DNA from: Candidatus Poribacteria bacterium
GTDB lineage: Bacteria; Poribacteria; WGA-4E; JAJDTR01
Length of the DNA: 64,000 bases
Direction: 5' to 3'
Assembly: GCA_965222225.1 (NCBI GenBank)
Contig: CBDCTK010000002.1
Location: 3,424,001 to 3,488,000, forward strand
Made by a program: the position numbers and the translations under genes. The notes beneath the pieces are model-generated. The model worked only from the letters and a program-made list of their open reading frames with translations. It was not told where the DNA came from and did not search any database. Positions 1,748-51,394 of this stretch are shown here, piece after piece. Positions within the stretch are counted from its first letter, which is position 1, and every line of letters begins with the position of its first letter.

Positions 1748-1780
1748 TAATGAGCGCGAAAGAACTCCCATAGAGATCCC
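1748..1780 (+). repeat. GA-hairpin unit family: two 3' fragments
   Basis: TAATGAGCGCGAAAGAACTCCC followed by ATAGAGATCCC. Confidence 0.65.
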
Positions 1781-1892
1781 TTCAAGCAAACATATAACCC
1801 CGCACGGAAAGAGCATTCGGACGGGCGTAATCCACTGCACCCGCTCCACTCCTATCCGCCACGCCTATCAAGGTTGTCCGCTTTAAAGTATA

Positions 1893-2654
1893 CTATTCCG
1901 AATCGTAGCACGCCTCCTTCAAGAATTGGAGCATCCGCAGCCGTCGTGGCGGGGCATCTTTGAACGTTTCAGGGGTGTAATAACCTCCGTCTTTGCGGTA
2001 GAGCCACTTTATGTACTCCGCCTCCTCAGGGGTCCTAGGCTTCTGTATATAGTTGATATAAACGCCGCGTCGTTTCGCGCCTTCGCCGAATGCGGAATGG
2101 TAAAGTTTCACATTGAAAACCAGGAGATCGCCGGGATCCGTCTCAATCGGATAGATGCCGGGAACATCCTTCCCGAGAGGCAGAATGTCTTCGCCATATT
2201 TCTCCATCCGTTCCCGGTAGGGAAGAAAGTGGCTGCCCGGCAGCACGCAGAGGCAGCCGGTTGTTGCCCTGACGGGTTCTAGATAGAAAATCACTTTCAG
2301 ATGACGATGTCCCTCCGGAGCGACATCGTCATGATGCCACCTCGTGTTGTTGGTGCGAAGGGCGCACTCTGAAACCGTAAACACATACTCTTCGCCGAGC
2401 AAGTCCTCAATGAGCTCGTTGAGTTTGTCGCCATCAAGCAGTGGGTGGTAAACCGCTGGATTCGACTCGAAGAACCGGAGGGTACCTATCGTCCTTCTCT
2501 CTTCATTTATCTCCAGCGTCTTGAGACCTTTGGCCCTTTTCAAGGTCTCATCGAATGCATCGGTGTACCGTTGTAGTTCGTCAGCAGGAAAAAAGTCCCT
2601 CAAACAGAGAAATCCCAACGTTTCAAAATGGTGTTTCTGAGCTTCTGTTAACAT
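1893..2654 (-). CDS. PhyH family dioxygenase, copy 2 (tandem paralog)
   Basis: Same length (253 aa) and motifs as 913-1674; identical C-terminal stretch. Confidence 0.9.
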   Translation of the reverse strand: MLTEAQKHHFETLGFLCLRDFFPADELQRYTDAFDETLKRAKGLKTLEINEERRTIGTLRFFESNPAVYHPLLDGDKLNELIEDLLGEEYVFTVSECALRTNNTRWHHDDVAPEGHRHLKVIFYLEPVRATTGCLCVLPGSHFLPYRERMEKYGEDILPLGKDVPGIYPIETDPGDLLVFNVKLYHSAFGEGAKRRGVYINYIQKPRTPEEAEYIKWLYRKDGGYYTPETFKDAPPRRLRMLQFLKEACYDSE

Positions 2655-2787
2655 TTTTCACCTTCCGTGGGTTCGTTCAGTGATTTTTGACGTGGCCGTT
2701 TTGCATATTCTGCGACCATCATGGTCACTGTTTCTATTTCTCAATCTCGACCCATCAACAGACTGCCCATCGCCAGAATTCAGCCCG

Positions 2788-4632
2788 TTACCAGATAATC
2801 CCTTTCAGATTAGGTATAAACCGGGTTCTCTTCACCTGGTTTCCGGATGGCACATCTTCATAAAGCGGATAAGCCACCCCTTTTGGATCAATGGAGATGA
2901 CATCTGAACCGCGCAGAACCAATTTGTACGGAATTTCCCCGAGCACCCGATGCACCTCTCGTTGCGGCACCGGGAACTCCAACGTGACCCGATCGCCCGG
3001 TTTCAGCCAGCCGACCCGCAGATAACGCCCTTCAATCAACGCCCGGCGCGCTTCTGCCCCAACGGTTACCCGCACCGCGTCGGGTTTGCACCACTCCGGA
3101 ATCCGCACAGCCACTTCTGGCGCATCCTTAATTCGAAGTATAACCTTTCCCTCCACCGGCAAATAACTGTCAATGTCGAGCCATTCGGAGGCGCGATTCA
3201 GCAACAGATGCACCTTCACCAGATCGCCCGTCTTGCTCACCATGCTATCCCACACGCAATAAAACGTCCGCGCACCGTTAGCCGTGCAGCAGTGCATAAT
3301 TGACGAATCCATTAGCTTTGGACCATCGGGAGTTTGATTCACGGTCAGGGCTTCATTGGCGCGCATCCAACCGAAGAACGAACCGACAGATCTCTCGCGA
3401 ATATTTGTGGAGTCACGGTACAACCGGTTGTCCGGTTCCGTATTATAATATTCCTCCGGGATATCTTCAAACAGGTGAGGGTCGCACAGTTGCCCCTGAG
3501 CGTACACATTACGCACCCACCGATCAACATCGTCCCAGTAATCGCCCAACCCGGCGCGGGTCAAGTAAAGCGCCAGCCAGACCATATCGGCAACCTCGCA
3601 GATCTCGACCGTATTGCCGTACCTTTCTAGGTAACGGTCGGTGCCCTGTTGAACCTCCGGATAGAACCCGATAAGCGGATCGCCCATCTCCCGCGCCCAA
3701 CGGTAGCACGCGTCCACCCGCTCCAGCACCTCCCGATTTCCGGTGGCGTAGCCGTACTCGCACACTGCCATCAGGGCGTAAAGCCCGTGATGAAAATGCC
3801 AAAACGAGTAGCGGCCATCCTCGTCGTTAAAAACGCGATCTAACGCCCAACGAGCCAAACCACGACACAACTCCAGAGCAGGCTCATAACCCGTGACGCG
3901 GTAGAAGAGCCCCGCACCGTGCCCGGTAGAACCTATCGAATATATCGTTGTAAACAGATGTTCCTTGCTATATAAACCGCCGCCTTCGTCCGGCAACATG
4001 CCCGGTTCATCGGCATTGCTCGGTGGAATTTGTCCCGGTTGGTATTGCGCTCGCCAGAGAAACCTGAAACCATCCTTTTCTCGCGTCAGGGATAGAATGC
4101 GATCAACTTTGCGTTTGCCAAACTCAATCCATTGTGGGTTGTCGTCAACCTGCGCCAGTATTGACATCGTCACGATTTGCCTGCCTTCACCCCAAATCTC
4201 GGCGAAAGGTATCATCTCATCGGCCTCACCTTCCGCAAAATGGGCCATTCCCATAGGAACCGTGTCGAATATATCGGTCGGGCAATAGGTAAGTCCGTCC
4301 GCACCGATAAGGTCTACCTGTGCCTGAATGACCCCCGAATCCACCTCCAAACTGGACTCATCCCCGGAAGCCAGTCGGCCCAACGCCAACGCCTCCACGA
4401 ATTTCGGCGGAATATTCAGATAGACATCGATTAAATGGTTGACAAACAGCACCGCCGGTCTACGCGAGAAATCCACGATGAATTTCAAACCCCACCGTGA
4501 CTCCGCGTCCCAGACATTGGTTAGGGCATTGATAGCCAACGCCATCCTATCTGCCAAATCGAGTGTATCTGGCACTTCGACCTCATAGCGGTCACCCTTT
4601 ATGCATTGTGCGGTAGGGTTATCATCAGCCAT
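2788..4632 (-). CDS. GH127/GH146-like (alpha/alpha)6 hydrolase, hypothetical
   Basis: EICEVADM and HCCTANG resemble the GH127 E-x-C and CC Zn motifs; C-terminal VRIPEW...GDRVTLEFP beta domains. Confidence 0.55.
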   Translation of the reverse strand: MADDNPTAQCIKGDRYEVEVPDTLDLADRMALAINALTNVWDAESRWGLKFIVDFSRRPAVLFVNHLIDVYLNIPPKFVEALALGRLASGDESSLEVDSGVIQAQVDLIGADGLTYCPTDIFDTVPMGMAHFAEGEADEMIPFAEIWGEGRQIVTMSILAQVDDNPQWIEFGKRKVDRILSLTREKDGFRFLWRAQYQPGQIPPSNADEPGMLPDEGGGLYSKEHLFTTIYSIGSTGHGAGLFYRVTGYEPALELCRGLARWALDRVFNDEDGRYSFWHFHHGLYALMAVCEYGYATGNREVLERVDACYRWAREMGDPLIGFYPEVQQGTDRYLERYGNTVEICEVADMVWLALYLTRAGLGDYWDDVDRWVRNVYAQGQLCDPHLFEDIPEEYYNTEPDNRLYRDSTNIRERSVGSFFGWMRANEALTVNQTPDGPKLMDSSIMHCCTANGARTFYCVWDSMVSKTGDLVKVHLLLNRASEWLDIDSYLPVEGKVILRIKDAPEVAVRIPEWCKPDAVRVTVGAEARRALIEGRYLRVGWLKPGDRVTLEFPVPQREVHRVLGEIPYKLVLRGSDVISIDPKGVAYPLYEDVPSGNQVKRTRFIPNLKGIIW

Positions 4633-4777
4633 ACGCTTCTTGTCCTTTCAATCTCAACACTGTTTCAAGTTTCACGCTCCCAACTTCTCTGACTCGACGC
4701 GCACCCTCAATGCTCAGACTGGATTGGCAAATCCAGACTGCACACTCGAATCCACCCGTCCGAATCACTCGTCTTTC

Positions 4778-5638
4778 TTATCTCTGCCGGATAAACTTCT
4801 GCAGCCGACCATCTGCCTGCACCTCGCTCACATACATATCCCCATGCGAATCTACCCAGAGACCGTGTGGGCAAGCATAGAACAACCCGGGCACCTCATT
4901 TCCGCGCTCACTCCCCCACTGGGTAATCACCTCCCCATCAAGCGTCATTATCGTGAGGTGCTGATCCATCTCCGCAATGTAAACGATGTCGTCCTCATCA
5001 ATGTAAATGGTGTCCGGATGCTTTAACCCGCCCCACTCTTCAATGTACTCGCCGTCAAGCGTGAAGAACTGGATGCGGTTGTTGCTGCGGTCTGCCACCA
5101 TCACCCGGTTGCGCGGATCCACCCGAACACAATGCGGCAAATCAAACTCTCCGGGTCCCGTCCCCGGCCTACCCCACGACATTATCAACTCTCCGTCGGG
5201 CGAATACTTGTGTACACGCGCGTTTCCGTACCCATCACTGATGAACATCTCGCCATTCGGGCCTAGTGCAAGATCGGTCGGCAAATTGAACGGTTCTCCA
5301 TCCGCACCAGGCTGACCTTGGTTGCCGATGGACATCAGCAGTTCGCCGTCCGACGTGAATTTGTGCATAATATGTGCGTCCCGCTCAACACAATAGATGT
5401 TATCTTCGGCATCAATGAAAATGCCGTGTGCATCCACAAGGATGTCGTCTCCCCACGAAGCGAGAAAGTTACCTTCGCGATCGAAAACCACCATGGGGTG
5501 CTCACTTCGGCTGTAGACATAAACCCTGTCTTGCGAATCCACGCCAACGGCTGGAATCCAACCGAAATTCCATCCTTCGGGTAATTGCCACCAATCTTCC
5601 TGAACTTCGTAAGTATGACTACCTGCTCCGTATGTCAT
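4778..5638 (-). CDS. NHL-repeat protein, peptidyl-alpha-hydroxyglycine alpha-amidating lyase-like
   Basis: NHL repeats FNLPTDLA, ISDGYGNARVHKY, GPGEFDLPH, ADRSNNRIQFF. Confidence 0.85.
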   Translation of the reverse strand: MTYGAGSHTYEVQEDWWQLPEGWNFGWIPAVGVDSQDRVYVYSRSEHPMVVFDREGNFLASWGDDILVDAHGIFIDAEDNIYCVERDAHIMHKFTSDGELLMSIGNQGQPGADGEPFNLPTDLALGPNGEMFISDGYGNARVHKYSPDGELIMSWGRPGTGPGEFDLPHCVRVDPRNRVMVADRSNNRIQFFTLDGEYIEEWGGLKHPDTIYIDEDDIVYIAEMDQHLTIMTLDGEVITQWGSERGNEVPGLFYACPHGLWVDSHGDMYVSEVQADGRLQKFIRQR

Positions 5639-5729
5639 GCGACTTTTCCTCCGAGAGTCTAAATATTGTGCACATAAATCATTCCATATCCTGCATTCAT
5701 TATCTCATAGTTATTGCCGAATTGCAACA

Positions 5730-5835
5730 ATCAACCAATCAAACGAGATCAACCGAACGGACAGTGAGGGCGATAGACATCCTGATAGCGACTGCGATAG
5801 TAAATCCCGTGCGATAGTATTCCTATAGAAATCTT
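5730..5835 (+). repeat. GA-hairpin unit family: compound array (2 prefixes, full unit 5748-5783, 3 suffixes)
   Basis: ATCAA CC GA AC GGACA GT GA GG GCGAT AGACATCCT plus flanking fragments. Confidence 0.85.
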
Positions 5836-5993
5836 CTCCAACCTGTAGGAGGGAGCTCCGGCTCGCGACAAACCCAAGTTTATTCTCGAAATCTCGGTTT
5901 TACCTCCATCGCCTTCTTCGCCTTGCAGCACCGTATTTCGCCGCGCCGCCCGCGCTCTCACGATTCACGCACTACGTTTCATGTGCGTCCCGT

Positions 5994-6024
5994 CCTTCCA
6001 ATCTTCCCTCCTTCCATCCTTCCC
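5994..6024. repeat. CTTCC 8-nt-period tandem repeat
   Basis: CCTTCCAATCTTCCCTCCTTCCATCCTTCC; related tracts at 22425 and 49304. Confidence 0.7.
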
Positions 6025-6038
6025 CGTTCGTAGTAGTG

Positions 6039-6074
6039 ATCAAGGAAGCGAATAGCGACCGCGATAGAAATCCT
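6039..6074 (+). repeat. GA-hairpin unit
   Basis: ATCAA GG AA GC GAATA GC GA CC GCGAT AGAAATCCT after GTAGTAGTG. Confidence 0.85.
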
Positions 6075-6106
6075 TTCTCCGCACATCTGGTCTATCGGCT
6101 TTTTGC

Positions 6107-6136
6107 TTGACTGCGTTCTGCGATTGGATTTATAAT
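6107..6136 (+). promoter_or_regulatory. Putative sigma70 promoter
   Basis: TTGACT-18 nt-TATAAT upstream of the dehydrogenase. Confidence 0.5.
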
Positions 6137-6273
6137 CCCATCCTTGATAAGCGCACAATTAAGAACACGCGGAAACGGAACGCACGAAATCAAAGAGAAA
6201 CAAACGTGACACAATCGAAGGAGTTTATGCGACTGCTTCACAACAATCTTTGCCAAGAGGGATTCATAAGATT

Positions 6274-8604: not shown

Positions 8605-8664
8605 GTAGGAGCGATCAAAGGAATGAATAATGACTGCGATAGAGATCCCTCTCCGAATCGCGAC
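8605..8664 (+). repeat. GTAG REP-like palindrome interrupted by a GA-hairpin unit (8614-8649)
   Basis: GTAGGAGCG[unit]TCTCCGAATCGCGAC; uninterrupted copy at 51408-51432. Confidence 0.9.
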
Positions 8665-11852: not shown

Positions 11853-14540
11853 ATGGCACTACACCCAAACTTCCCTCAGTCCCCGCACGCAATTAGCGAC
11901 CCCTCGGTGCGCTGGTTCCCAGCCGACGAAGAACTGCGGGACACCGGCTACGGAAAACTCATTCCCCCACTCGTCCACAAAATCCGCGAAAAGGTCAAAA
12001 CGTGGCGAGAGGCCGGCTACGGAGAAGCTGCCGAAACCAGCAAATCCCTTCTCAACTGGTGGTTTAACACTCCCCATCTCATGGAAGGCGCCGATGGCGA
12101 AACCAGCGGATTCCAATACTACTTCGCCCAGAGAGAGGCGTTGGAGACCGTAATCTACCTGTACGATGTCATTAGGGTACAGGACAAATACGACTTAATG
12201 CGATTTGACAGTTCAGGCGCAATCTCAACCGGCATGTTTGATGAAGATTGGCGCCGGTTCGTGCTGAAGATGGCAACCGGCACCGGCAAAACAAAGGTGA
12301 TGGGCCTTGTCGTCGCTTGGAGTTTCTTTCACAAACTCTACGAACCCGACTCCGACCTGTCGCGCAACTTTCTGGTCATCGCTCCCAACATCATTGTGCT
12401 TGACCGTATCTATCACGATTTTCAAGGGCTACGCGTTTTCTTTGGCGACCCCGTGTTGCCCGACAACGGTTTTGACGGTCACAACTGGCGTGACGATTTC
12501 CAACTGACCCTGCATCGACAGGACGAAGTGCGCGTCTCCCGTGCCACCGGCAACATCTTTCTTACCAATATCCATCGGGTCTATTCTAGCGACCAAGCCC
12601 CGCCGTCCCCCGATGACGAAAACACGATGGACTACTTTCTCGGCAAACGACCCACGGGGGCAACCACGGATTCAAAGGTAGACGTAGGGGATATTGTCCG
12701 GGAGGTGGACGAACTCATGGTACTGAACGATGAAGCGCATCATATCCATGACCCGAGATTAGCATGGTTCAAATCCATTGAGGACATTCATAACCGCCTA
12801 CTGCAGAAAGGCGGCAAGCTATCGTTGCAAGTAGATGTCACCGCCACGCCCAAACACAACAACGGAGCGATCTTTGTCCAGACGGTGGCGGATTATCCGC
12901 TCGTGGAAGCCATCTCCCAAAATGTTGTCAAACACCCCGTGCTGCCCGATGCGCCGAGTCGAGCCAAGTTGGAGGAGCGGCAAAGCGCGAAGTACACCGA
13001 GAAATATGCGGACTACCTCGAACTTGGCGTCATCGAGTGGCGCAAAGCCTATGCGGAACATGAAAAACTGGGTAAGAAAGCCATTCTATTTGTAATGACC
13101 GACGATACCCGAAACTGCGATGAGGTCGCCGAATATCTCGAAAGCCGTTATCCCGAACTGAAAGATGCCGTCTTGGTGATTCACACACAGAGGAATGGCG
13201 AAATTTCTGAGGCAACTTCGGGCAAGAAGAAAGAGGAGTTGGGCGAACTGCGTAAACAGGCGAATGAAATTGATTCGATGGGGAGCCCCTACAAGGCGAT
13301 CGTATCGGTGCTGATGCTCAAGGAGGGATGGGATGTCAGGAATGTGACCACCATTGTCGGCTTACGCGCCTACTCCGCCAAGAGCAACATCCTGCCGGAA
13401 CAGACCTTGGGACGCGGGCTGCGCCGCATGTACGGCGAGGAAGTGAAGGAGTCAGTCAGCGTCATCGGCACCAACGCTTTCATGGAATTTGTCGAGTCTA
13501 TCCAAGCGGAAGGAGTTGAATTGGAACGCCAAGCCATGGGCGAGGGCACTGGCCCCAAAACACCGCTGGTGATTGAAGTGGACAAAGACAACCCCAGCAA
13601 AGACATTGACGCTCTAGATATCAGTATTCCTAAACTAACCGGGCGTGTTTATCGGGAATACAAGAATCTGTCCGAACTTGATGTGACGCGCTTCGATTTT
13701 ACCCCTGTGACCTATCGGGAGTTTAGCGAAGAAGAGCAACGGGAGATTGTTTTTAAGGACATGACGACGGGTGAGACGACGCATACCACACAGATGGATA
13801 GTGCCGGCATCGCGGATTATCGGAGTGTGATTGCCTACTTCGCACAGACTATCATGAAAGAGTTACGACTGGTCGGTGGCTACGACGCCCTATACCCCAA
13901 GGTACAAAGTTTCATTGAGAGCCACTTGTTCGGCAGATCGGTGGCGTTGGAAGACCCAAATACCTTACGCAATCTGTCAGAGGTTGCGGCAACAAAAACC
14001 GTATTCGATACCTTCAAGCGAGCGATTAACGACCTCGCAGTTCGGGACAAGGGTGACACAAAGATTAGCGATACTATCAAGCTGCGAAGTACGCGCCCCT
14101 TCGTGGTCAAAGACCAGCGGTACGTAGTGTCGAAAAAGTCCGTGTTCAACAGAATCACGGGCGATAATCAACTAGAACGCGACTTCGCCACTTTCTTGGA
14201 AAACTGCCCCGATGTCCTTTCCTACGCCAAGAACTACTTCGCGGTAAATTTCAAGCTTGATTATGTCAACGCCGATGGTGATATTTCCAACTACTACCCG
14301 GATTTCATAGTTAAACTCGCAGATGGCAGTGTAATCATCGCCGAGACAAAAGGTAGAGAAGATACCGATGTGGCACCAAAAATGCGCAGACTCGCCCAGT
14401 GGTGCGAAGATGTCAACAAAATTCACCACGAAGTTTCTTATGACTTTGTCTACGTTGACGAGGACAGCTTTCGGACGTACAACCCACACACATTTCAACA
14501 ACTGCTGGAGGGATTCACCGAATACAAAACCCGCGACTGA
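11853..14540 (+). CDS. res: Type III restriction enzyme Res subunit (SF2 helicase + PD-(D/E)XK nuclease)
   Basis: MATGTGKT, DEAH, TATP, LKEGWDV, QTLGRGLR, YYPDF..AETKG. Confidence 0.9.
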   Translation: MALHPNFPQSPHAISDPSVRWFPADEELRDTGYGKLIPPLVHKIREKVKTWREAGYGEAAETSKSLLNWWFNTPHLMEGADGETSGFQYYFAQREALETVIYLYDVIRVQDKYDLMRFDSSGAISTGMFDEDWRRFVLKMATGTGKTKVMGLVVAWSFFHKLYEPDSDLSRNFLVIAPNIIVLDRIYHDFQGLRVFFGDPVLPDNGFDGHNWRDDFQLTLHRQDEVRVSRATGNIFLTNIHRVYSSDQAPPSPDDENTMDYFLGKRPTGATTDSKVDVGDIVREVDELMVLNDEAHHIHDPRLAWFKSIEDIHNRLLQKGGKLSLQVDVTATPKHNNGAIFVQTVADYPLVEAISQNVVKHPVLPDAPSRAKLEERQSAKYTEKYADYLELGVIEWRKAYAEHEKLGKKAILFVMTDDTRNCDEVAEYLESRYPELKDAVLVIHTQRNGEISEATSGKKKEELGELRKQANEIDSMGSPYKAIVSVLMLKEGWDVRNVTTIVGLRAYSAKSNILPEQTLGRGLRRMYGEEVKESVSVIGTNAFMEFVESIQAEGVELERQAMGEGTGPKTPLVIEVDKDNPSKDIDALDISIPKLTGRVYREYKNLSELDVTRFDFTPVTYREFSEEEQREIVFKDMTTGETTHTTQMDSAGIADYRSVIAYFAQTIMKELRLVGGYDALYPKVQSFIESHLFGRSVALEDPNTLRNLSEVAATKTVFDTFKRAINDLAVRDKGDTKISDTIKLRSTRPFVVKDQRYVVSKKSVFNRITGDNQLERDFATFLENCPDVLSYAKNYFAVNFKLDYVNADGDISNYYPDFIVKLADGSVIIAETKGREDTDVAPKMRRLAQWCEDVNKIHHEVSYDFVYVDEDSFRTYNPHTFQQLLEGFTEYKTRD

Positions 14541-15926: not shown

Positions 15927-16028
15927 GAAACCGATCAAGCGACCGAATAGGATCAAACGAGTGAATAACGAGTGCGATAGTGATTCCCGCGCGATAGAAA
16001 CCCCTTTTTTTCCTGAAAACTCGGTTTC
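15927..16028 (+). repeat. GAAACCGAG-type palindrome holding nested GA-hairpin units (outer 15934-16004, inner 15952-15988)
   Basis: GAAACCG[...]TTTTTTTCCTGAAAACTCGGTTTC; clean palindrome at 35869. Confidence 0.88.
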
Positions 16029-16207: not shown

Positions 16208-18463
16208 ATGCCACGACTCACTGAACAAGAACAACAAGAAATTCTCCGTTTCATTGAGGCGGACAAACCTCTCCCCGAGAAGTATCGCTTTCTGCTATTC
16301 GAGGACAAACGCGAGGTGGAGTTAGTCTGGAATAGCAAGACCAACGAAGTCTGCAACATCGTCCTCCCCTTTCAGTCAATTGAACTCGTGGATGAACCTC
16401 GCGCCGAAAAACCTGACGACACCAGTCCGTGGCTAGAGTTGTTCGATGAGCGCGGACGCCAACTCAAGGGCTGGACGAACAAACTGATTTGGGGCGACAA
16501 CAAGTTGATTCTGTCCTCGCTTAAGAATGGTCCCCTGCGCGAGGAGATTGAAGCCGAGGGTGGACTCAAGTTAATCTATATCGATCCCCCTTTTGACGTG
16601 GGCGCGGACTTTTCCATGAACATTGAAATTGGCGAAGACACCTTTACGAAAAAACCGAACATCCTTGAAGAGATTGCCTACCGTGACACTTGGGGCAAGG
16701 GATCGGATTCATTCATTGCTATGATTTACGAGCGCGTGGTGCTAATGAGGGATTTGCTAGCAGAGGACGGAAGTATTTACGTGCATTGTGACTGGAGAAT
16801 GATCGGTTATTTGCGACTAGTTGTCGATGAAGTCTTCGGACATGACCATTTCCAAAACATAATCACTTGGCGTAGAGGCCCTCAAAAATCACATGGATTA
16901 GGTTATGGACACAACGCCGACTATATAATTTACGGAACGAAAACGGATCGATTTGTCTGGAATATACAAACCGGTGAGTTGTCAGGTGAATACTTAGAAT
17001 CCTTCAAAGAAGATGAGTATGGAAAGTATGTTACCACCCCCCTTCACAGTGGTCGTCCACCAAAAATTGTACCAGAATGGCGAGGAGTTAAACCACCCTC
17101 AGGAAGGGGCTGGGCATACACAATTGAGACACTTGAGCATTTTGATAAAGAAGGCAAAGTTGAGTGGAGCAAGAATGGTATTCCCCGGTTAAAGCGTTAC
17201 TTAAGCGAGATAAAAGGTGCGGCAGTTCAAGAAATATGGACAGATATTAAACCACTATTAGCAAAGTCCTCATCACACGTCGGATACCCCACGCAAAAAC
17301 CGGAAGCCCTGATCGAACGCATCATCAAAGCATCGTCAAACGAAGGCGATCTCATTGCCGACTTCTTCTGCGGCTCCGGCACCACTGCCGCCGTTGCCGA
17401 AAAACTCGGGCGAAAGTGGATTGCCACAGACCTCGGTAAGTTCGCTATCCACACCACGCGTAAACGAATGATCGGCGTCCAACGTCAACTGAAAACCGAT
17501 GGCAAAGACTACCGTGCCTTTGAGATTCTCAACCTCGGCAAATACGAGCGCCAACACTATATCGGCGTCAATCCAAACCTGCGCGAGGTCGAACAGCAAA
17601 GGCAATTGGAGGAAAGAGAAAAGGAATTTATCAGCCTCATTCTGCGCGCCTATTCCGCCGAGAAAACCGACGGTTTCGCCGCCTTCCAAGGCGTGCGAGC
17701 CGGGCGGCTGGTGGCGGTCGGTCCCGTCAACCTGCCGGTCACCCGCCTGTACGTGGAGGAAATCATCCTCGAATGCCGCAAACATCGAATCACCCGTGTG
17801 GATATCCTCGGCTTTGAGTTTGAGATGGGGCTGTTCCCCAACGTGCTGGATGAGGCGAAAAACAAAGGCATTGACATCGCGCCAAAATACATCCCCGCCG
17901 AGGTGTTCGACAAACGGGCAGTGGAGCGTAATCAAGTGGTGTTCCACGACGTGGCGTTTATCGAAGTCAAACCGCATATTCACGCTCCGAGCAAAGCAAG
18001 TGCACTGCCAACCGTAGCCGTCGAATTGACCAATTTTTCCGTCTTCTACTCACAAGACTCCATCGCCCACGCCGAGCAGTCGCTCAGAACGAGGGGCAGC
18101 CGCATCGCCGTCGAAAAAGGGCAGATTGTCAAGGTGAGTCGAGATGCCAACGGCGTCTACACCCGCGAGGTGTTGACCAAGCATTGGACTGACTGGATTG
18201 ATTACTGGTCCGTAGATTTTGACTTCGAGAGCAAACGTGAAATTATCCGCGTCCAAGAGCCTGAGACCGGAGAGTGGGAGGAGCAGTGGACAGGCGACTA
18301 CATCTTTGAAAACGAGTGGCAGAGCTTCCGCACAAAAAAAGACCGCTCATTGGAGTTGACCAGCGTCGCTCACGAGTGCATTCCCGGCCGCCGCAAACTC
18401 GCTGTCAAGGTGGTTGACATCTTCGGTAACGACACAATGACGGTTCTGGAGGTGTCGGTGTGA
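16208..18463 (+). CDS. mod: Type III R-M Mod subunit, adenine DNA methyltransferase (beta class)
   Basis: IYIDPPF, YPTQKPE, DFFCGSGTT, C-terminal VKVVDIFGND. Confidence 0.9.
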   Translation: MPRLTEQEQQEILRFIEADKPLPEKYRFLLFEDKREVELVWNSKTNEVCNIVLPFQSIELVDEPRAEKPDDTSPWLELFDERGRQLKGWTNKLIWGDNKLILSSLKNGPLREEIEAEGGLKLIYIDPPFDVGADFSMNIEIGEDTFTKKPNILEEIAYRDTWGKGSDSFIAMIYERVVLMRDLLAEDGSIYVHCDWRMIGYLRLVVDEVFGHDHFQNIITWRRGPQKSHGLGYGHNADYIIYGTKTDRFVWNIQTGELSGEYLESFKEDEYGKYVTTPLHSGRPPKIVPEWRGVKPPSGRGWAYTIETLEHFDKEGKVEWSKNGIPRLKRYLSEIKGAAVQEIWTDIKPLLAKSSSHVGYPTQKPEALIERIIKASSNEGDLIADFFCGSGTTAAVAEKLGRKWIATDLGKFAIHTTRKRMIGVQRQLKTDGKDYRAFEILNLGKYERQHYIGVNPNLREVEQQRQLEEREKEFISLILRAYSAEKTDGFAAFQGVRAGRLVAVGPVNLPVTRLYVEEIILECRKHRITRVDILGFEFEMGLFPNVLDEAKNKGIDIAPKYIPAEVFDKRAVERNQVVFHDVAFIEVKPHIHAPSKASALPTVAVELTNFSVFYSQDSIAHAEQSLRTRGSRIAVEKGQIVKVSRDANGVYTREVLTKHWTDWIDYWSVDFDFESKREIIRVQEPETGEWEEQWTGDYIFENEWQSFRTKKDRSLELTSVAHECIPGRRKLAVKVVDIFGNDTMTVLEVSV

Positions 18464-24461: not shown

Positions 24462-24482
24462 GTAGGGTGCGCACTACGCACC
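24462..24482 (+). repeat. GTAG REP-like palindrome
   Basis: GTAG GGTGCG CACTA CGCACC. Confidence 0.6.
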
Positions 24483-24505: not shown

Positions 24506-24604
24506 ATCGAGCGAAAGAATAATGAGCGATCAACTGAGTGGTTAACGAACGCGATAGGAGATCTTGGTAGAGTTCCAACAGAGATCGCAAGGCGATGAAA
24601 TCCC
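24506..24604 (+). repeat. Nested GA-hairpin units (inner 24529-24565) plus suffix fragments
   Basis: ATCGAGCGAAAGAATAATGAGCG[ATCAACTGAGTGGTTAACGAACGCGATAGGAGATCTT]GGTAGAGTTCC... Confidence 0.82.
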
Positions 24605-26348: not shown

Positions 26349-26420
26349 ATCAAGGGAGTGAATAACGACCGATCAACTAACTGGACAAGGAAGGCGATAG
26401 TAAATCCCGATAGAGATCCC
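26349..26420 (+). repeat. Nested GA-hairpin units (inner 26372-26408) inside a CGGGG...CCCCG palindrome
   Basis: ATCAAGGGAGTGAATAACGACCG[ATCAACTAACTGGACAAGGAAGGCGATAGTAAATCCC]GATAGAGATCCC. Confidence 0.9.
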
Positions 26421-26539: not shown

Positions 26540-26956
26540 GTGTTAACCGGATTATGGACAATTGGCATTAAGGTGCCCTCTCTTGAACGGGAATTGGCGT
26601 TCCATCGGCAGATGGGCAACGAAATTGTCCTTGATGAGATTTTGGAACTTGACGGTGAGTCCTTTCGCCTACCCCTGATCGAGATGGGAGACAAATACAT
26701 CCATGTGGCGGAGAAGATGGCATACGAATCTTTCTTGGATGAACCTCTCCCCTACGGCATGACGCACCTGGTTTACATCAGCAATCGCTTTGATGAAGAT
26801 GTCGCCAAAGCCATTGAAAGCGGTGCCGTCGCCTTGAGGGAACCTGCTGAAGTAAAGGCGGAGTTCGGCGAGAGAAGAGTAGCGTTTCTGCGCGCCCCAA
26901 GTGGTTGGATCTTCGAGATCATCGAAATCAAGCGGAATCTAGTTCCCGAGGTCTAA
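26540..26956 (+). CDS. VOC/glyoxalase family protein
   Basis: IGIKVPSLE, GMTHL, AFLRAPSGWIFEIIE. Confidence 0.8.
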   Translation: MLTGLWTIGIKVPSLERELAFHRQMGNEIVLDEILELDGESFRLPLIEMGDKYIHVAEKMAYESFLDEPLPYGMTHLVYISNRFDEDVAKAIESGAVALREPAEVKAEFGERRVAFLRAPSGWIFEIIEIKRNLVPEV

Positions 26957-27008
26957 AAGAGCAAATAGCGACGGAGCACTGACCGATTGGGAAGGCGCTA
27001 GAACTCCC
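26954..27008 (+). repeat. Degenerate nested GA-hairpin units (inner 26975-27008)
   Basis: AGCA CT GA CC GATT GG GA AG GCGCT AGAACTCCC. Confidence 0.65.
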
Positions 27009-28365: not shown

Positions 28366-28435
28366 ATCAACTGAGTGGATAACGAAGGAGCAACTGACCG
28401 ATAGGGAAGGCGGTAGAGATCTCATAGAAATTCCC
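28366..28435 (+). repeat. Nested GA-hairpin units (inner 28389-28423)
   Basis: ATCAACTGAGTGGATAACGAAGG[AGCAACTGACCGATAGGGAAGGCGGTAGAGATCTC]ATAGAAATTCCC. Confidence 0.88.
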
Positions 28436-32348: not shown

Positions 32349-32467
32349 ATCAAACGAACGAATAGTGAGTGCGATAGCAATCTTTGATAACGAAGGATCA
32401 AGGGATTGGATAATGACCGCGATAGAGTTCTCATAGAAAATTCCGTAGTGACTGCGATTGGAATCTT
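32349..32467 (+). repeat. GA-hairpin compound array (full unit, then nested pair with inner 32397-32432, then a suffix)
   Basis: Follows GTAGGG; two full units and three fragments. Confidence 0.88.
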
Positions 32468-38122: not shown

Positions 38123-38181
38123 GTAGCACAAGGGATCTCTATCGCACTCGCTATTTGCTCGCTTGATCTGTTAGATTGTGC
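38123..38181 (-). repeat. GTAG palindrome interrupted by a GA-hairpin unit on the minus strand (38132-38167)
   Basis: GTAGCACAA[unit, reverse complement]CTGTTAGATTGTGC; removing it restores GCACAATCT GTT AGATTGTGC. Confidence 0.9.
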
Positions 38182-43333: not shown

Positions 43334-43391
43334 GTAGGTCGGGATCAAGCGACTGAAAAAGGAGCGCGATAGAAATCCCTTCTAGCCCGAC
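43334..43391 (+). repeat. GTAG palindrome interrupted by a GA-hairpin unit (43344-43379)
   Basis: GTAGGTCGGG[unit]TTCTAGCCCGAC. Confidence 0.9.
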
Positions 43392-43560: not shown

Positions 43561-43641
43561 GTAGCAGCGATAAACTGAGCGAATAGATTGAGCGAGCGAA
43601 CGAATAATGAGGGCGATAGAGATTCCTCTCCGGATCGCGAC
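43561..43641 (+). repeat. GTAG palindrome interrupted by a prefix plus a GA-hairpin unit (43591-43626)
   Basis: GTAGCAGCG[...]TCTCCGGATCGCGAC. Confidence 0.82.
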
Positions 43642-46108: not shown

Positions 46109-46137
46109 TTGACATCCTTTTGAATTCCTGATAAAAT
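46109..46137 (+). promoter_or_regulatory. Putative sigma70 promoter
   Basis: TTGACA-17 nt-TAAAAT with extended TG. Confidence 0.55.
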
Positions 46138-46181
46138 ACGCGCACCTAGCCCGAAACAGAACTTCTGCGGTTGAACCCCCG

Positions 46182-46238
46182 GTAGGAGCGATCTCCGAAT
46201 CGATCAACCGAACGAATAGTGAGGGCGATAGCTTTTCT
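46182..46238 (+). repeat. GTAG palindrome truncated by a GA-hairpin unit (from 46203)
   Basis: GTAGGAGCGATCTCCGAATCG then ATCAA CC GA AC GAATA GT GA GG GCGATAG. Confidence 0.85.
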
Positions 46239-46363
46239 CCAAAACTCATGACATGGATGCACTGTCATTTTAGAGAACTGGTATTATAATTCAGCGATTC
46301 ACCCCGGTTCCCATGCTGCGGGAGCTTTAATAGCCACCGACGACTAATCCTTAAGGACAACAA

Positions 46364-47749
46364 ATGATAGACACAACCTATCTCCTCAACGACAAACAGA
46401 TGCGGGATTTCATCGTTAACGGGTATGTGATTGTCAAGACGGATCTGCCACGGGATTTTCACGATGAGATTTACAAAGCCACAAACACAGTGTTTGAAAA
46501 GGAGGGCAATCCGGGCAACAACCTTTTGCCTCGCATTCCCGAAATTCAGCGTGTGCTCGAAGACCAGACCGTCCGTGGCGCGTTGACGAGTCTCTTAGGC
46601 GCGGATTACTATATGCAGCCCCATCGCCACCCCCATATTAACCCGCCAAAAAGCAAGGGGCAAAACCTGCATCAGGATGGCGGCAAACGCTGGTCGCATC
46701 GGACGCGTCGTTTGCTGGTCTTCTACTATCCACAGGACACGCCGGAAGAGTTGGGCCCCACCAGTATTGTTCCGGGGAGCCACTACTATTGTACCCCTGA
46801 AGGCGGTAAGATTCGGGGCGAAGTTCCACTTTCCGGAGAATCCGGCACCGTGACCATCGCGAACTACGACCTTTGGCATAGGGCTATGCCCAATCGAACC
46901 GACATGCCTCGCTACATGATGAAATTCCTTTCCGCCCGCATGTCGGAACCCGATTCACCTTCATGGAATACTGACCAGCCGGACTGGATGAGCGACACAC
47001 CAATTGGCAACCCCGAGCATCAGACATTGTTCAAGCATGTTTGGGATTGGCACCACGGCAAAACTACTTCAAATACTGAAGCCAACGGTGCTCCCGGTGA
47101 CGCGATAATAAGCAAACTGATAGCAACGCTGTACGATGGCGGCGAGTCGGTATGCCTCCGCGCTGCATATCAACTAGCCGCATTCGGCGTGCTAGCTATT
47201 CCCGACTTGGTAGCGCTGTTGGAGGAAGAATCAGAAGTCGTCCGTCGAAATGTGTGCTATGCCTTGAGTGCCATCGGTGCGCCCGCCGTCGCCCCCCTGA
47301 TTCACGCCCTGGAAGCTAAGAATTGGTGGACCAGTGATAGCGCGGCGGAAGTGCTGGGAGATATGGGACTTGATGCGCAGGAAGCCGTGCCGGCGCTGAT
47401 GCGTGCGGTGCGAGACGAATCGGATGCTGTCCGCTCTCATGCTGCGGAGGCATTGGGAACAACAGGGCAATTATCCGCCGCCGCTGTCCCGGCGCTGATT
47501 ACCGCACTGCAGGATGCGGAAGGATCCGTCCGTCGCAACGCGGTGTTCGCGTTGGCTCAGCTGGGACCGCACGCTAGGGATGCCGTACACGCACTACAGA
47601 ATGTCCTCTTCGACGAAAACCGATATGTGCGTGGAGACGCTGTGAACGCGCTTCATCGTATTGGCACAAAGGAGGCGTCGGATGTGTTGCTTCGCTATCT
47701 AACCATGTTCCGCTGGTGCCCGTTGACCACCCGAGAGAGTACGCATTAA
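46364..47749 (+). CDS. PhyH family dioxygenase fused to HEAT repeats
   Basis: LHQD, YYPQDTP, VPGSH, LWHR; VRRN..AL / AVPAL HEAT repeats. Confidence 0.9.
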   Translation: MIDTTYLLNDKQMRDFIVNGYVIVKTDLPRDFHDEIYKATNTVFEKEGNPGNNLLPRIPEIQRVLEDQTVRGALTSLLGADYYMQPHRHPHINPPKSKGQNLHQDGGKRWSHRTRRLLVFYYPQDTPEELGPTSIVPGSHYYCTPEGGKIRGEVPLSGESGTVTIANYDLWHRAMPNRTDMPRYMMKFLSARMSEPDSPSWNTDQPDWMSDTPIGNPEHQTLFKHVWDWHHGKTTSNTEANGAPGDAIISKLIATLYDGGESVCLRAAYQLAAFGVLAIPDLVALLEEESEVVRRNVCYALSAIGAPAVAPLIHALEAKNWWTSDSAAEVLGDMGLDAQEAVPALMRAVRDESDAVRSHAAEALGTTGQLSAAAVPALITALQDAEGSVRRNAVFALAQLGPHARDAVHALQNVLFDENRYVRGDAVNALHRIGTKEASDVLLRYLTMFRWCPLTTRESTH

Positions 47750-47756
47750 AAAATAA

Positions 47757-49005
47757 CGGAATTAGTAGCTTGTAGCTTTTAGACTGACGACAAACATAAA
47801 ACTTGGTACCCTGTCGTAAATCTTTTCGTCACACGTAGATGTCCATAGTGACTATTCTTCTCGTAGGAGTTTGCTATGGACATTTTGAATCTTATGAAAG
47901 AGTTTCCAAATCAAGAATCTTGTCTCAGATTTATAGAGGAAAAACGTTGGAAGGACGGTGTTTGCTGTATCCACTGTGGCAGTGAAAAAGTTGGACGCAA
48001 GAACAAAAACGACATTACTACTGGTTGGAATTGCTACGATTGTGAATCTAGCTTTTCGGCTACAGCAGGAACCATCTTCCATGGTACCAAGATACCTCTC
48101 CAGAAATGGTTTTTGGCTATCTCAATTCTTTCCAATGCCAAGAAAAGCATATCGAGTTGTCAGCTTGCTCGTGACTTGGACATGAATCAAAAGTCCGCTT
48201 GGTATATGGCAATGCGCCTCCGTGAGAAAATGAGTGATAGTGATGAATTGCTGAAAGGGATAGTTGAAGCGGACGAAACCTATGTCGGCGGCAAACCCAG
48301 AGCAAAATCTAAGAGAGGTAGAGGCACAAATAAATCTCCCGTCATCGGCGTAGTCGAGAGAGGCGGTCGGGTGGTTGCTAAATTCATGAAGGTTCTATCT
48401 GGTGAAAATATCAGAGAATTCATCCTTAGCAATGTCTCACCCGATGAGTCTATTCTTATGACTGATGAATTTCGCTCTTACAATAGTCTGGACGAAGATA
48501 TCGAAAGACATGTTATCCATCACCAAGAGAGATATGTTTCTGAGGACGGCGTAACTCACACCAACACCATCGAGTCGTTTTGGGCTTGTGTCAAGAGGTC
48601 ATTCTACGGAACGCATCATCACTACAGCAAGAAGTGGCTGCCACTGTATATCATGGAGTCTTGCTGGAAATATAATCGCAGAAAAGATGATGAGATTTTC
48701 ATAAGATTTTTTGATGAATGCTTCACCTGAGCCACATGAATTGTTTGGCTATCGGTATATTCTGTCAACGACAACATCATGGTGTGCTGAAAATCCCATA
48801 GTGTTGGAAATTAAAATCCCGCAGATAACCCGCAATGCTCCCGCGAGCATGTACAAACGCTTGGTCAACATGATATGCCTCCATTTCTCTCTTATAGAGA
48901 TGTATTTTAGTGTGAATCAAGATTCCGAACACTGTCTAAAATGATTGTACATTAAGAAGAGAAAAGCAAGCAAATCGACCAAAAAGCAGTTAACTACTAA
49001 GTCCC
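47757..49005 (+). mobile_element. IS1595-family insertion sequence, 1249 bp
   Basis: IRL CGGAATTAGTAGCTTGTAGCTTTT vs IRR (reverse complement) GGGACTTAGTAGTTAACTGCTTTT, 17/24 match; 8-bp TSD AAAAATAA at 47749-47756 and 49006-49013. Confidence 0.88.
47876..48730 (+). CDS. IS1595 family transposase
   Basis: Zn ribbon CIHC...CYDC, VEADETYVGG, TDE, HTNTIESFW. Confidence 0.95.
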   Translation: MDILNLMKEFPNQESCLRFIEEKRWKDGVCCIHCGSEKVGRKNKNDITTGWNCYDCESSFSATAGTIFHGTKIPLQKWFLAISILSNAKKSISSCQLARDLDMNQKSAWYMAMRLREKMSDSDELLKGIVEADETYVGGKPRAKSKRGRGTNKSPVIGVVERGGRVVAKFMKVLSGENIREFILSNVSPDESILMTDEFRSYNSLDEDIERHVIHHQERYVSEDGVTHTNTIESFWACVKRSFYGTHHHYSKKWLPLYIMESCWKYNRRKDDEIFIRFFDECFT

Positions 49006-49148
49006 AAAAATAATCATCTGATTTAAAGCAAACTTCGGGAACAAATTTTATGTTCTGACACGGCTCACGGCGCTCCGATTCTCCTGCCGCTCCTGCTAGA
49101 TTAACAAATCCAGCAGATATTGAGTTCGAGTCTCCCGCTCCAGAGTAA

Positions 49149-49184
49149 ATCAAACGACTGGACAGGGAGTGCGATAGAGATCCC
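49149..49184 (+). repeat. GA-hairpin unit
   Basis: ATCAA AC GA CT GGACA GG GA GT GCGAT AGAGATCCC. Confidence 0.88.
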
Positions 49185-49303
49185 CATGTTGATAGAAAGC
49201 GTGCATAACTTCAATCTTCTGCTCCAAAGGAGCAGCATGTTTATAGATAACAGTAGACCCATCATCTTCGGAGGGATGACTTATTAAGGATGGCGCGAAA
49301 GAA

Positions 49304-49333
49304 AATCTTCCACTCTTCCATCCTTCCAATCTT
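49304..49333. repeat. CTTCC 8-nt-period tandem repeat
   Basis: AATCTTCCACTCTTCCATCCTTCCAATCTT. Confidence 0.7.
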
Positions 49334-49648
49334 ACTGTTCCTAACGAAAGTAGCGTCAATTCTGAGATATCAAATTGTCTTGAGCCGCAACTACGGATTC
49401 ATACCAAAATTTCATACCCCCATTCCCATGGCTTCAATGTCGAAACTGGGTAGAATCCAGTCATAGCACAAGTGTTTCCCCTTTTCTGTCTCTATTGAAA
49501 ACCCGCGTTTGTTATGAAAAGTATGAAAAATATGAAATTTCCCACGACGGCATAACGATGTTTTTCAAGTCGCGCCTAGGACTTTCAAGCAAACTCTAAC
49601 TGTACACCGAACTACATCCCGGCAAAAGTCAATTGAGGTGAAGTTGAA

Positions 49649-50365
49649 ATGGATAAGACGGCAATTATATCCGGTGTTGGTCCCGGTTTGGGAGCTTCGC
49701 TTGCGAGAAAGTTCGCAAAAGAGGGATGGGCGGTTGGTTTGCTTGCACGCTCTTCCGACTACATTGAAAGCCTAGCTCAAGAACTAAATGAGCATGGCGC
49801 AAACGCGCTTGCAATTTCAACGGACATCACGCAATCCAATCAAGTTGCGGACTGTTTTGCGAAGATTCGCAAGCAACTCGGCTCGGTAGATGTTCTGGTA
49901 AATCATGCGGGAAATGCGGTATGGAAAACCTTTACCGACCTAACACCACAGGAGTTCGAACAATCGTGGCGGGTTTGTGCGCTTGGCTCATTTCTCTGTT
50001 CTCAGCACGCCGTGCCGGATATGCTCGCTCGCGGAAGCGGAACGATTCTTTTCACCGGCGCCACCTCTGCGATTCGAGGAAGAGGCGCGGCGTCAGCCTT
50101 CAGCAGCGCGAAATTCGCTGTCCGAGGGCTCGCATGGTCGCTTGCCCGCGAAGTTGGCCCCAAAGGCATTCACGTTGCGCACGTGATCATTGATGGCGTA
50201 ATCGACACCCCCGGTGTCCGATCAAGCCTGTCGGACGACGCGGACGAGCCGCTGCTTAATCCGGACGCCATTGCCCAAACATACTGGAGCCTGGTGCTTC
50301 AAGAGAAAAGCGCCTGGAGTTTCGAGGTTGATTTGCGGCCCCACAATGAAGAATTCTTCACTTAG
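49649..50365 (+). CDS. SDR family oxidoreductase
   Basis: SGVGPGLG, NHAG, TGATSA, FSSAK, HVAHVIIDG. Confidence 0.92.
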   Translation: MDKTAIISGVGPGLGASLARKFAKEGWAVGLLARSSDYIESLAQELNEHGANALAISTDITQSNQVADCFAKIRKQLGSVDVLVNHAGNAVWKTFTDLTPQEFEQSWRVCALGSFLCSQHAVPDMLARGSGTILFTGATSAIRGRGAASAFSSAKFAVRGLAWSLAREVGPKGIHVAHVIIDGVIDTPGVRSSLSDDADEPLLNPDAIAQTYWSLVLQEKSAWSFEVDLRPHNEEFFT

Positions 50366-50406
50366 TTGCGGGCATCACACTATTCTATTGAAGAGGGTTT
50401 CCGACG

Positions 50407-51207
50407 ATGATTAATAACGATCAGGTAAAGTTCTTTTGGGAACACGGTTATCTACACATCCCGCAGGTTTTCACGCCCGAAGAAACAGATGAATTGACCA
50501 GCGAACTTGATTGGCTCATTGATAAATGGGCAAATATTACCCCGGGCTGGTCCGGCCCTTGGCGTCGAAAGTACATGGATGCGGAAACCGAGAAAAAATC
50601 CAAACTGATTGCGATGCACGATTTGTCATTCTATTCCGAGGCGTGGATGAAAGCCGTCACCAATCCCGGTCTATGCGATGCGATGGCTGCCCTGCTAGGT
50701 CCCCGTGCAGAACTTCATCATAGTACCATGCACGTCAAACCGCCGGAAACCGGACATCCATTCCCCATGCACCAAGATTGGGCGTTCTACAAGCATCGAG
50801 ATGGTCGCTATGTCGATCTGTTAGCCCACCTTGATGATACCTGTCACGAAAACGGTGAAATCCGCTTCCTTGATGGGTCGCATAAGGGCGGCGCCCTGGA
50901 ACATATCACCCGGAATCCTGACGGTACGACCTGCACGCCGCATCTGCCTACCGACCAATACAAGCTGGAAGATTCTCTCGCTGTCCCCGCCAAACGAGGC
51001 GATGTCGTATGTTTTAGCCTCCATGCCATCCACGGATCCTACATCAACCAAACAGACAAGAACCGTCGTCTCGTGCGGTTCGGATACCGCCATCCTGAGA
51101 ACGAGCAGTTTGAAGGCCAGAGTTTGGGAAGACCGGGTCTGATGGTTCGCGGCAGTCGCAGACGGGGGATTCATCAGGAGTTGTTTACCAACACGGGACC
51201 TAGATGA
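50407..51207 (+). CDS. PhyH family dioxygenase
   Basis: KPP, MHQD, ENGEIRFLDGSH, IHGS..N. Confidence 0.9.
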   Translation: MINNDQVKFFWEHGYLHIPQVFTPEETDELTSELDWLIDKWANITPGWSGPWRRKYMDAETEKKSKLIAMHDLSFYSEAWMKAVTNPGLCDAMAALLGPRAELHHSTMHVKPPETGHPFPMHQDWAFYKHRDGRYVDLLAHLDDTCHENGEIRFLDGSHKGGALEHITRNPDGTTCTPHLPTDQYKLEDSLAVPAKRGDVVCFSLHAIHGSYINQTDKNRRLVRFGYRHPENEQFEGQSLGRPGLMVRGSRRRGIHQELFTNTGPR

Positions 51208-51318
51208 GTTTAACATTTACAGGACAGGTATTGAAGATATTATCATTCTCCCCGTGTTCCGGAATTGTCCTGTTTAGAACTTGCTTCAAATCCATTTTCG
51301 CGTAAAATCATATGCCCT

Positions 51319-51394
51319 GAAACCGATGAAATGAGATCAAGCGAGTGGATAACGAGCGCGATAGAGATCCCTTCTTTCTTCAGAGCTCGGTTTC
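51319..51394 (+). repeat. GAAACCGAG-type palindrome interrupted by a GA-hairpin unit (51336-51371)
   Basis: GAAACCG ATGAAATGAG[unit]TTCTTTCTTCAGAGCTCGGTTTC. Confidence 0.88.

Follow-up and report, generated by a model that had tools for sequence, protein, structure and literature searches.

The window analysed here is a 64-kb stretch of DNA (G000:C2:3424001-3488000) from the 5.70-Mb, 50% G+C metagenome-assembled genome (MAG) of a Candidatus Poribacteria bacterium, hereafter the source genome (G000). Proteins encoded in the window carry planctomycete-type domains (PSCyt2 and PSD1), and between its long open reading frames (ORFs) lie copies of a dispersed element of 35-37 nt with the unit (G)ATCAA-n1n2-GA-n3n4-G(R)(W)(Y)A-n4'n3'-GA-n2'n1'-GCGATAG-(N)ARATCC(Y), where primed bases can pair with their unprimed counterparts. 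An earlier note on this window had placed the element or fragments of it at 16 intergenic loci; all 16 hold the element or a piece of it and, by the ORF list, lie between long ORFs. Counting as full any copy with at most 2 mismatches over 17 fixed positions, we arrived at the same 14 full copies, no two of them identical, and at the same tally for their 56 variable pairs (50 Watson-Crick, 2 G-T and 4 mismatches). A 14-base motif from the 3' part had 14 matches in the window at no more than 2 mismatches against 0.49 expected, and 0 of 100 shuffles reached 14.

Coordinates of copies are given within the window, and copies lie on the plus strand unless stated otherwise. The full copies at 43344-43379 and 51336-51371 have 4/4 Watson-Crick pairs, the latter with exact fixed positions; that at 6039-6074 also has 4/4, with one fixed-position mismatch (GA to AA), and in that at 49149-49184 the loop-closing pair is a T.G wobble. 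The locus 32349-32432 is occupied by a full copy at 32349-32384 and another at 32397-32432, the second with one T.T mismatch. Other copies sit inside further hairpin repeats of the genome, which we number as families REP-1, REP-3 and so on, after repetitive extragenic palindromic (REP) sequences. The full copy at 8614-8649, of the commonest stem variant (AG-AT), lies in a REP-3 copy between GTAGGAGCG and TCTCCGAATCGCGACC. On the minus strand, the full copy at 38132-38167 lies in a REP-7 copy between GTAGCACAA and TCTGTTAGATTGTGC, a site whose uninterrupted form occurs 5 times elsewhere in the genome. At 46203-46231 a full core with a non-canonical tail follows ...GAATCG in a REP-3 copy, and at 43570-43626 a 5' partial copy and a degenerate full copy (43591-43626; 2 fixed-position mismatches and 2 unpaired cells) lie inside a REP-3-like copy.

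Copies also sit in one another. At 26349-26420 a 36-nt guest (26372-26407) is cleanly inserted between G23 and C24 of its host, at 15934-16004 a full guest (15952-15987) lies within a host copy, and the nested cluster at 5730-5800 comprises two 5' partial copies, a full copy (5748-5783) and the 3' remainder of a host copy. The locus at 24506-24565 has a 5' partial copy and then a full copy (24529-24564) with 1 mismatched pair. At 28366-28432 a 5' part (28366-28388) is joined to an AGCAA...GCGGTAG variant copy (from 28389) and tail repeats; 26954-27000 holds a divergent or degenerate AGCAA-type variant (GAGCAC...GCGCTAG AACTCCC); and at 1748-1780 there is only a 3' fragment, a degenerate 3' arm followed by ...CCCATAGAGATCCC, with no complete hairpin.

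Scanning the source genome with a template of the 17 fixed positions (GATCAA..GA.........GA..GCGATAG) yielded 669, 258 and 118 copies at 0, 1 and 2 mismatches, 1,045 in 5.7 Mb, while the reversed template used as a control had no match at up to 2 mismatches. The great majority (975/1,045) do not fall in crude ORFs of 120 aa or more. In a survey of 176 genomes of the phylum, exact copies were numerous only in 10/10 genomes of the window's genus (367-1,011 each) and in 4/4 genomes of one genus of another family (123-150 each), and 7 other MAGs had 1-16 each, some on small contigs that are possibly mis-binned; the remaining 155 genomes had none, and the reversed control gave 0 everywhere. The low-copy genomes were considered as clues to a master copy and set aside: copies in G010 and G059 are on small contigs of fragmented MAGs, possibly through mis-binning, and G041 has a single nested locus only. 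The viral contigs of IMG/VR and the plasmids of PLSDB contained no match, and a scan of genome contigs gave only Poribacteria records among the matches listed. As the earlier note had supposed, no Rfam family covers the element: there were 0 matches at gathering scores, and at E values up to 1 there were 2 unrelated weak matches, neither located at the element. Within the literature searched for Poribacteria together with REPs or IS200 repeats, we found no published description. Two readings of its short motifs were also dropped, GCGAT as the highly iterated palindrome HIP1, with a cyanobacterial origin (the genome has only 120 GCGATCGC sites, and the protein domains are of planctomycete type), and GATC as a link to methylation (observed/expected 0.86, unremarkable).

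Covariation and the predicted fold

Only four base pairs of the element float. Among the 927 genome copies with 0 or 1 mismatch (669 + 258), the sample also used for the nesting counts, the outer pair (pair 0) was C-G in 263, G.T in 226, G-C in 199 and A-T in 196; pair 1 was C-G in 445, T-A in 218 and G-C in 184; pair 2 was G-C in 399, A-T in 247 and C-G in 222; and the loop-closing pair 3 was C-G in 413, T-A in 363 and T.G in 123. Mutual information (MI) in these four paired columns was 0.82, 1.02, 1.22 and 0.45 bits, with every other column pair at or below 0.24 bits. The 5' half populated 42 of 48 allowed combinations (8 outer by 6 inner dinucleotides), and linkage between the outer and inner helices was small (MI at most 0.18 bits). 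In an alignment of 150 distinct copies, taken from 206 at loci in several species, paired cells made up 96.8%, compared with 78.5% in shuffles (0/500 reached the observed value) and 16-48% when partners were slid; cells changed on both sides numbered 262, against 46 in shuffles. Together, MI and shuffle tests confirm genome-wide what had been read from the window, that the variable bases pair and covary. Descent from a few ancestors, which the earlier note had named as a refuting case, was not borne out: since 150 distinct multi-species copies still pair, a few founders cannot explain the pairing.

Pairing was strand-specific. Over the 2,676 pairs of the 669 exact copies, G.T and T.G made up 10.3% and A.C and C.A 0.9%; because G.T is tolerated and A.C is not, pairing is selected on the ATCAA strand only. 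It is extremely improbable, in our view, that the element is a double-stranded site for a dimeric regulator or nucleoid protein, or that its covariation is an artefact of founder descent. Either would suit the invariant blocks that flank a partly palindromic core and the amplification of some stem variants as passengers (AG-AT, with 50 copies, rides in REP-4), but a duplex binder gives uncontacted bases no reason to stay complementary and leaves the asymmetry between G.T and A.C unexplained, and founder descent has to contend with the 42 populated combinations, the weak linkage of the two helices and the pairing across species.

The statement that structure rather than sequence is conserved stood for the four covarying pairs and failed for the rest of the unit. 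In the 150-copy alignment, 20 positions were conserved in 90% of copies or more, or were invariant (GATCAA, the two GA steps, the G, third-base A and last A of the loop, and GCGATAG), among them, just above the ATC:GAT stem, AA opposite GC (100% and at least 90%); the AR-ATCC tail was also conserved, less strictly. Conservation spanned the G ahead of ATCAA to ...ATCC(Y), with none outside. After GCGATAG the tail read ARATCCY in 514/927 copies and N-ARATCCY in 219/927, with other sequence in the remainder.

These conserved positions also bear on the earlier note's proposal of fold-back or hairpin-primed synthesis, to which intra-hairpin mismatch correction may be added, in which one arm templates the other and pairing is not selected. 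Such copying would account for the very high pairing at variable positions (94-97%), yet it would make GA/GA and AA/GC complementary, whereas both are conserved as non-complementary. Nor does templating predict the position-specific wobbles (G.T in 226/927 at the outer pair and T.G in 123/927 at the loop-closing pair, against about 3% at the two middle pairs) or the rules for the bases beside the GA steps, where A precedes GA in 2/927 copies and T follows it in 6/927. We therefore rejected the proposal and hold it to be very improbable.

As a single strand, the element would fold, from the bottom, into a short lower stem ATC:GAT and a 2x2 AA/GC bulge and then, towards the top, a 2-bp helix, a tandem G.A step, a second 2-bp helix and a pentaloop closed by G...A. 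The triplets ATC and GAT occurred in 619/680 copies and the exceptions were uncompensated; the stem being invariant, covariation says nothing about ATC:GAT pairing, and the earlier claim that these triplets pair was left without that support. A pyrimidine-GA-purine context prevailed (77% and 74% of the 927 copies) and the loop-closing pair was always Y-R; such a context favours tandem sheared G.A pairs. The step is not that of a kink-turn, in which an asymmetric 3-nt bulge lies beside tandem sheared G.A pairs: in the 150-copy alignment it was symmetrically flanked by 2-bp helices, without a bulge. A guide-target relationship was rejected because stem bases shared at most 0.09 bits of MI with flanks or tail, and the left flank at most 0.07 bits with the bases after the tail. 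At G000:C2:1578448-1578560 and similar sites, the element forms head-to-tail arrays with a 38-nt period, in which TCTTGTAGG replaces the tail and places GTAG directly ahead of the next ATCAA.

Nesting, insertion sites and orientation

The element is mobile DNA. For 143/927 copies, a paralogous uninterrupted site, with the same flanks joined without the element, exists elsewhere in the genome; the hosts belong to at least five other REP families (REP-1, REP-3, REP-4, REP-6 and REP-7) or are the element itself. Insertion points (^) are AAGCCCCAGNGGGG^CGANAGGTGTATAG in REP-1, GTAGGAGCG^ATCTCC... in REP-3 and GTAGGGTGCG^CA.TGCG^CACC in REP-4. By left context, at least 170/927 copies lie within another copy and 58/927 in REP-1. 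Clean nested insertions numbered 52/927; excision of mostly 35-36 nt restores the host copy perfectly, and the sites are the junction of G23 and C24 and positions following CGA, either in the loop or at the 3' GA step. REP-1 and host copies are entered preferentially at equivalent points, the G^CGA junction. The base before ATCAA was G in about 93% of the 927 copies by the top trinucleotide counts (1.54 bits in the flank profile), and the preceding triplet was GCG in 225/927.

Positions differed between species. Three species have the element within the REP-1 copy next to the gene for P0001, a transposase described below, and in three others this REP-1 copy is intact. Along a syntenic block of 9 kb, the source genome has five copies or near-copies (three with an exact core), four other species have copies at other places and one species has none. 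Fixed positions diverge by about 2.8% from the consensus, as derived from mismatch counts, so the copies are young while their stem positions are saturated; the diversity must then stem from a multitude of active source lineages and not from post-insertion decay. Nesting, filled and empty sites and species-specific positions support the earlier suggestion of a minimal non-autonomous element. Orthologous empty sites between species could not be aligned, the intergenic DNA being too diverged. Two read joints, with skips of 35 and 36 nt, were considered as polymorphisms and rejected: their sides are only 21-23 nt, and the genome itself contains the joined forms 5 and 7 times; paralogues therefore explain both, and they give no evidence of polymorphism.

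Orientation followed replication and not transcription. In co-directional gene contexts, 351 copies ran with the genes and 300 against, and in 100-kb bins orientation had a Spearman correlation of -0.02 with gene strand and of -0.53 (p 5e-5) with GC skew, or -0.56 with elements masked (range of rho -0.53 to -0.63, p at most 5e-5). Copies formed 339 orientation runs compared with 516 expected. The dnaA gene is located at the minimum of cumulative skew, which indicates the usual polarity and puts the folding strand mostly on the lagging strand. The GTAG strand of REP-1, REP-3, REP-4 and REP-6 had the same bias towards the C-rich (lagging) strand (67-79%; element, 70%).

This pattern bears on whether the element is a structured RNA motif, for example a terminator-like signal, a sequence that stabilises transcripts or a site for processing or protein binding, with its spread being secondary. 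An RNA would be expected to tolerate G.U-type wobbles and not A.C, as seen; with RNA parameters, 3 of 6 window copies had the proposed fold as their minimum-energy structure, and a fourth retained the hairpin core while GAUC paired with the tail. Contigs from a metatranscriptome run cover element-bearing stretches, although libraries of this kind may contain DNA. Because the public runs were contigs, nothing was learnt from them on RNA ends or levels. Set against this are the lack of a preferred direction of transcription, the dependence on GC skew, the nesting of copies in one another and in other DNA repeats, RNA folding z-scores of only -0.1 to -1.5, and the finding of neither a T-run nor an Rfam match. 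We judge an RNA role distinctly unlikely.

The GC skew of the contig (G000:C2) changes sign often, with several local cumulative extremes besides the dnaA-linked minimum near 2.6 Mb, and element orientation flips along with the skew blocks. These reversals suggest many inversions or assembly joins. A second ORF with a DnaA domain lies at 602775-603212 of the same contig.

Candidate enzymes and co-resident repeats

The source genome has at least 6 loci for Y1/HUH transposases, a single weak reverse-transcriptase match (27.5 bits) and no match to TnpB (PF07282 model). P0001, encoded outside the window (G000:C2:3080255-3080728), is an intact Y1 protein of 157 aa with HUH and Tyr motifs; it is IS200-like by NCBIfam (65.8 bits), and its score with the model for REP-associated tyrosine transposases (RAYTs), 30.6, falls below the cut-off of 80. 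In every genus examined (loci L014-L025) its gene is bracketed by inverted REP-1 copies (AAGCCCCAGNGGGGCGANAGGTGTATAG), a repeat that forms arrays of about 60-nt period in some genomes. Inverted copies of the element also flank the gene, which made P0001 a candidate for the cognate transposase, but they sit inside REP-1; with the conserved flank being REP-1 with the element inside, they are no proof. P0001 homologues occur in 78/121 genomes of the order, including genera without the element, and none was found in 2/4 element-bearing genomes of the second genus.

Other Y1 genes have repeats of their own: REP-3 for the L011 pseudogene, REP-6 for P0002, and REP-4 and REP-8 for other RAYT classes. 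Element copies that flank several of these genes are passengers inside the genes' REPs. P0002, P0003, L011 and the high-scoring RAYT classes were thus rejected as cognate, each having its own REP or a patchy distribution, and the gene tracking the element that the earlier note had proposed to look for did not emerge among the Y1/RAYT genes tested. Searching for genes flanked by copies was unspecific, with 88 crude ORFs having copies within 250 bp on both sides. P0003 is a 247-aa Y1-domain protein (G000:C2:2563962-2564705) that is 99% identical between G000 and G005; no complete P0003 was found in the other 29 relatives searched, G009 having a 93%-identical C-terminal fragment, and by these identities it looks like a recent transfer.

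The genome contains at least 5 further hairpin repeat families, most of them GTAG-tagged; every family is associated, somewhere within the genus, with a separate RAYT-like gene. Within the window, REP-3 copies lie at 46183 and 51409, a REP-4 copy at 24463 and a REP-7 copy at 38123. As a weaker pointer to the mobilising enzyme than the E. coli parallel given below, REP-1 carries CGA(T/C/A)AG directly 3' of its hairpin, like the CGATAG of the element.

Relation to known systems and a proposed mechanism

Like REPs, the element is an extragenic imperfect palindrome of the 20-40-nt class (35-37 nt) in hundreds of copies. The parallel extends to the hairpin itself: passages of PMC3479197 describe an Escherichia coli REP that is recognised as a single-stranded hairpin and is bound by TnpA_REP through 10 bp interrupted by a bulge (A12.C27 and A13.G26). 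Correcting the bulge abolished binding, and the five tip-proximal pairs and the loop were uncontacted, according to passages of PMC3479197 and PMC3733652. Compared with that account (PMC3479197), both hairpins have AA opposite GC above a lower stem of A/T/C-G pairs, and the variable pairs of the element are distal to the bulge, as is the uncontacted stem in E. coli. This layout predicts a lower part read by base and an upper part read by shape only, as seen. In REP/RAYT systems, moreover, several families and Y1 genes coexist in a genome and transposases and repeats correlate untidily, as PMC3733652 describes. Unlike REPs, the element has no GTAG or CGTC tag, its conserved ends being GATCAA and GCGATAG; GTAG lies up to 8 nt upstream in about 212/927 copies, where the copy sits inside another GTAG-REP. 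It also rarely forms the inverted pairs of the REP composites BIME and REPIN (44 inverted versus 204 direct neighbours within 150 bp), no REPtron of its own was found around the Y1 genes examined, its stem consists of two 2-bp helices split by a tandem G.A step with 42 coexisting variants, and it inserts into other REPs and into itself. The earlier opinion that this is not a described REP was therefore right as to tag and inverted dimers and incomplete as to the bulge, which it shares with the E. coli hairpin.

IS200/IS605 elements insert 3' of a short target without duplication and with a replication-linked strand bias. Their ends are subterminal imperfect hairpins that serve, as single-stranded DNA (ssDNA), as the substrate of a Y1 transposase (PMC6006769). 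These elements and their non-autonomous derivatives, palindrome-associated transposable elements (PATEs), which descend from a resident insertion sequence with tnpA and/or tnpB, have two different hairpin ends and at least 100 nt, in contrast to the single hairpin of 36 nt and the genome without TnpB matches found here.

Elhai et al. reportedly described in 2008 (Genome Res 18:1484) small dispersed repeats (SDRs) of the cyanobacterial family Nostocaceae, 21-27 nt long and held to be mobile. Passages citing that work state that SDR5 inserts precisely behind the GCG of GCGATCGC, between its 3rd and 4th bases (PMC4390886), and that SDRs are absent outside Nostocaceae (PMC5861425). The element likewise enters after G, which ends a GCG triplet in 225/927 copies, and starts with ATC; it belongs to another phylum, and SDR sequences and folds are set beside it by description only. 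As far as citing passages allow the comparison, SDRs appear to be what it most resembles in behaviour.

We consider it probable, though far from certain, that we are dealing with a non-autonomous mobile element of miniature size and REP-like kind, active as ssDNA and moved in trans by a Y1/HUH (RAYT-like) enzyme. A RAYT or an IS200-kind Y1/HUH transposase would read the invariant lower stem, the bulge and the single-stranded flanks base by base and would require of the distal stem only that it be helical, so that the four pairs could drift while remaining paired and would covary. New copies would land immediately 3' of a G, often inside hairpin repeats and older copies. Because no Y1 gene tracks the element, we infer the enzyme and its class; we likewise infer that ssDNA is the form that acts and that the bulge is read. 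The element would work like a REP without the tag, the inverted-pair habit or a REPtron of its own and, on present evidence, is not a new category of system.

Several results weigh against this mechanism. The hairpin alone is predicted to have 0 to -2.2 kcal/mol as DNA, no better than shuffles, and -2.7 to -6.5 kcal/mol as RNA, with the z-scores given above; such low stability suggests that the fold is held by a protein or is undervalued by DNA parameters, which may underrate tandem G.A pairs. The ends are not cleanly defined: up to two target bases (0, 1 or 2) behind the G appear to be shared or lost, and three units fit the junctions, depending on the site, namely TCAA...ATCCC placed after GA, ATCAA...ATCC placed ahead of C, and ATCAA...ATCCY taking the place of one or two bases that follow the G. 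Public runs yielded no same-species empty allele. Every Y1/RAYT gene examined has a different flanking repeat (REP-1, -3, -4, -6 or -8), none of the Y1 lineages tested has a distribution that follows the element, no cognate enzyme came to light, and the 88 doubly flanked ORFs show that flanking of a gene by the element is nothing special. Finally, the folding strand is mostly the lagging strand, that is, it lies on the leading-strand template, and IS608-type elements have the opposite orientation bias.

Some of these points would be met if the element moved by a route other than HUH/Y1, such as template switching at replication forks, the action of a recombinase not yet recognised, or the copying of a small hairpin RNA by a reverse transcriptase. 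Such a route would accommodate the lack of a tracking Y1 gene, the heterogeneous tail length, the one or two target bases lost or shared at junctions, unlike classical IS200/IS605 integration, and the orientation opposite to that of IS608. We think it unlikely, given the single weak reverse-transcriptase match, the lack of a TnpB match, the orientation bias shared with GTAG-REPs of the same genome and the AA/GC bulge, which parallels a RAYT substrate as described in passages of PMC3479197.

A more specific version of the ssDNA mechanism seems to us possible, if on the doubtful side: a geneless hyperparasite of REPs, 35-36 nt long, that uses any available Y1/RAYT or fork-associated activity. 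It would enter by its tandem-G.A hairpin and AA/GC bulge at a G in the arm or foot of ssDNA hairpins, replacing 1-2 target bases. If so, it would be among the smallest mobile DNAs known, and its integration chemistry would be without a described counterpart in IS200/IS605 or REP systems.

With several hundred to about 1,500 copies per genome (at up to 2 mismatches) in 14 genomes from two groups of sponge-associated Poribacteria, the element forms a natural data set of very short mobile hairpins. The 42 stem variants separate positions read by sequence from those that need only pair and so amount to a natural mutational scan of a recognition site, one that would be ssDNA (less likely RNA) and contains a tandem G.A step. 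The element shows that REPs are themselves colonised by a smaller element and that the same replication-linked bias in orientation is common to several REP families. Both observations are relevant to the movement of REP/RAYT systems, a matter not yet settled. In practical terms, copies break short-read assemblies of Poribacteria, whose contigs end at them, and may serve as strain markers.

Two neighbouring features of the window are of separate interest. An ORF at 47876-48730 (+) encodes an IS1595-family transposase (188.6 bits), and several copies of the surrounding stretch 47750-49025 occur at 90-97% identity in congeneric species, a sign that the insertion sequence may be active or have been transferred recently. 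Judging by their domains, ResIII (helicase/nuclease) and N6_N4 (DNA methylase), the ORFs at 11853-14540 and 16208-18463 are probably a type III restriction-modification system; the element cluster at 15934-16004 is located between them.

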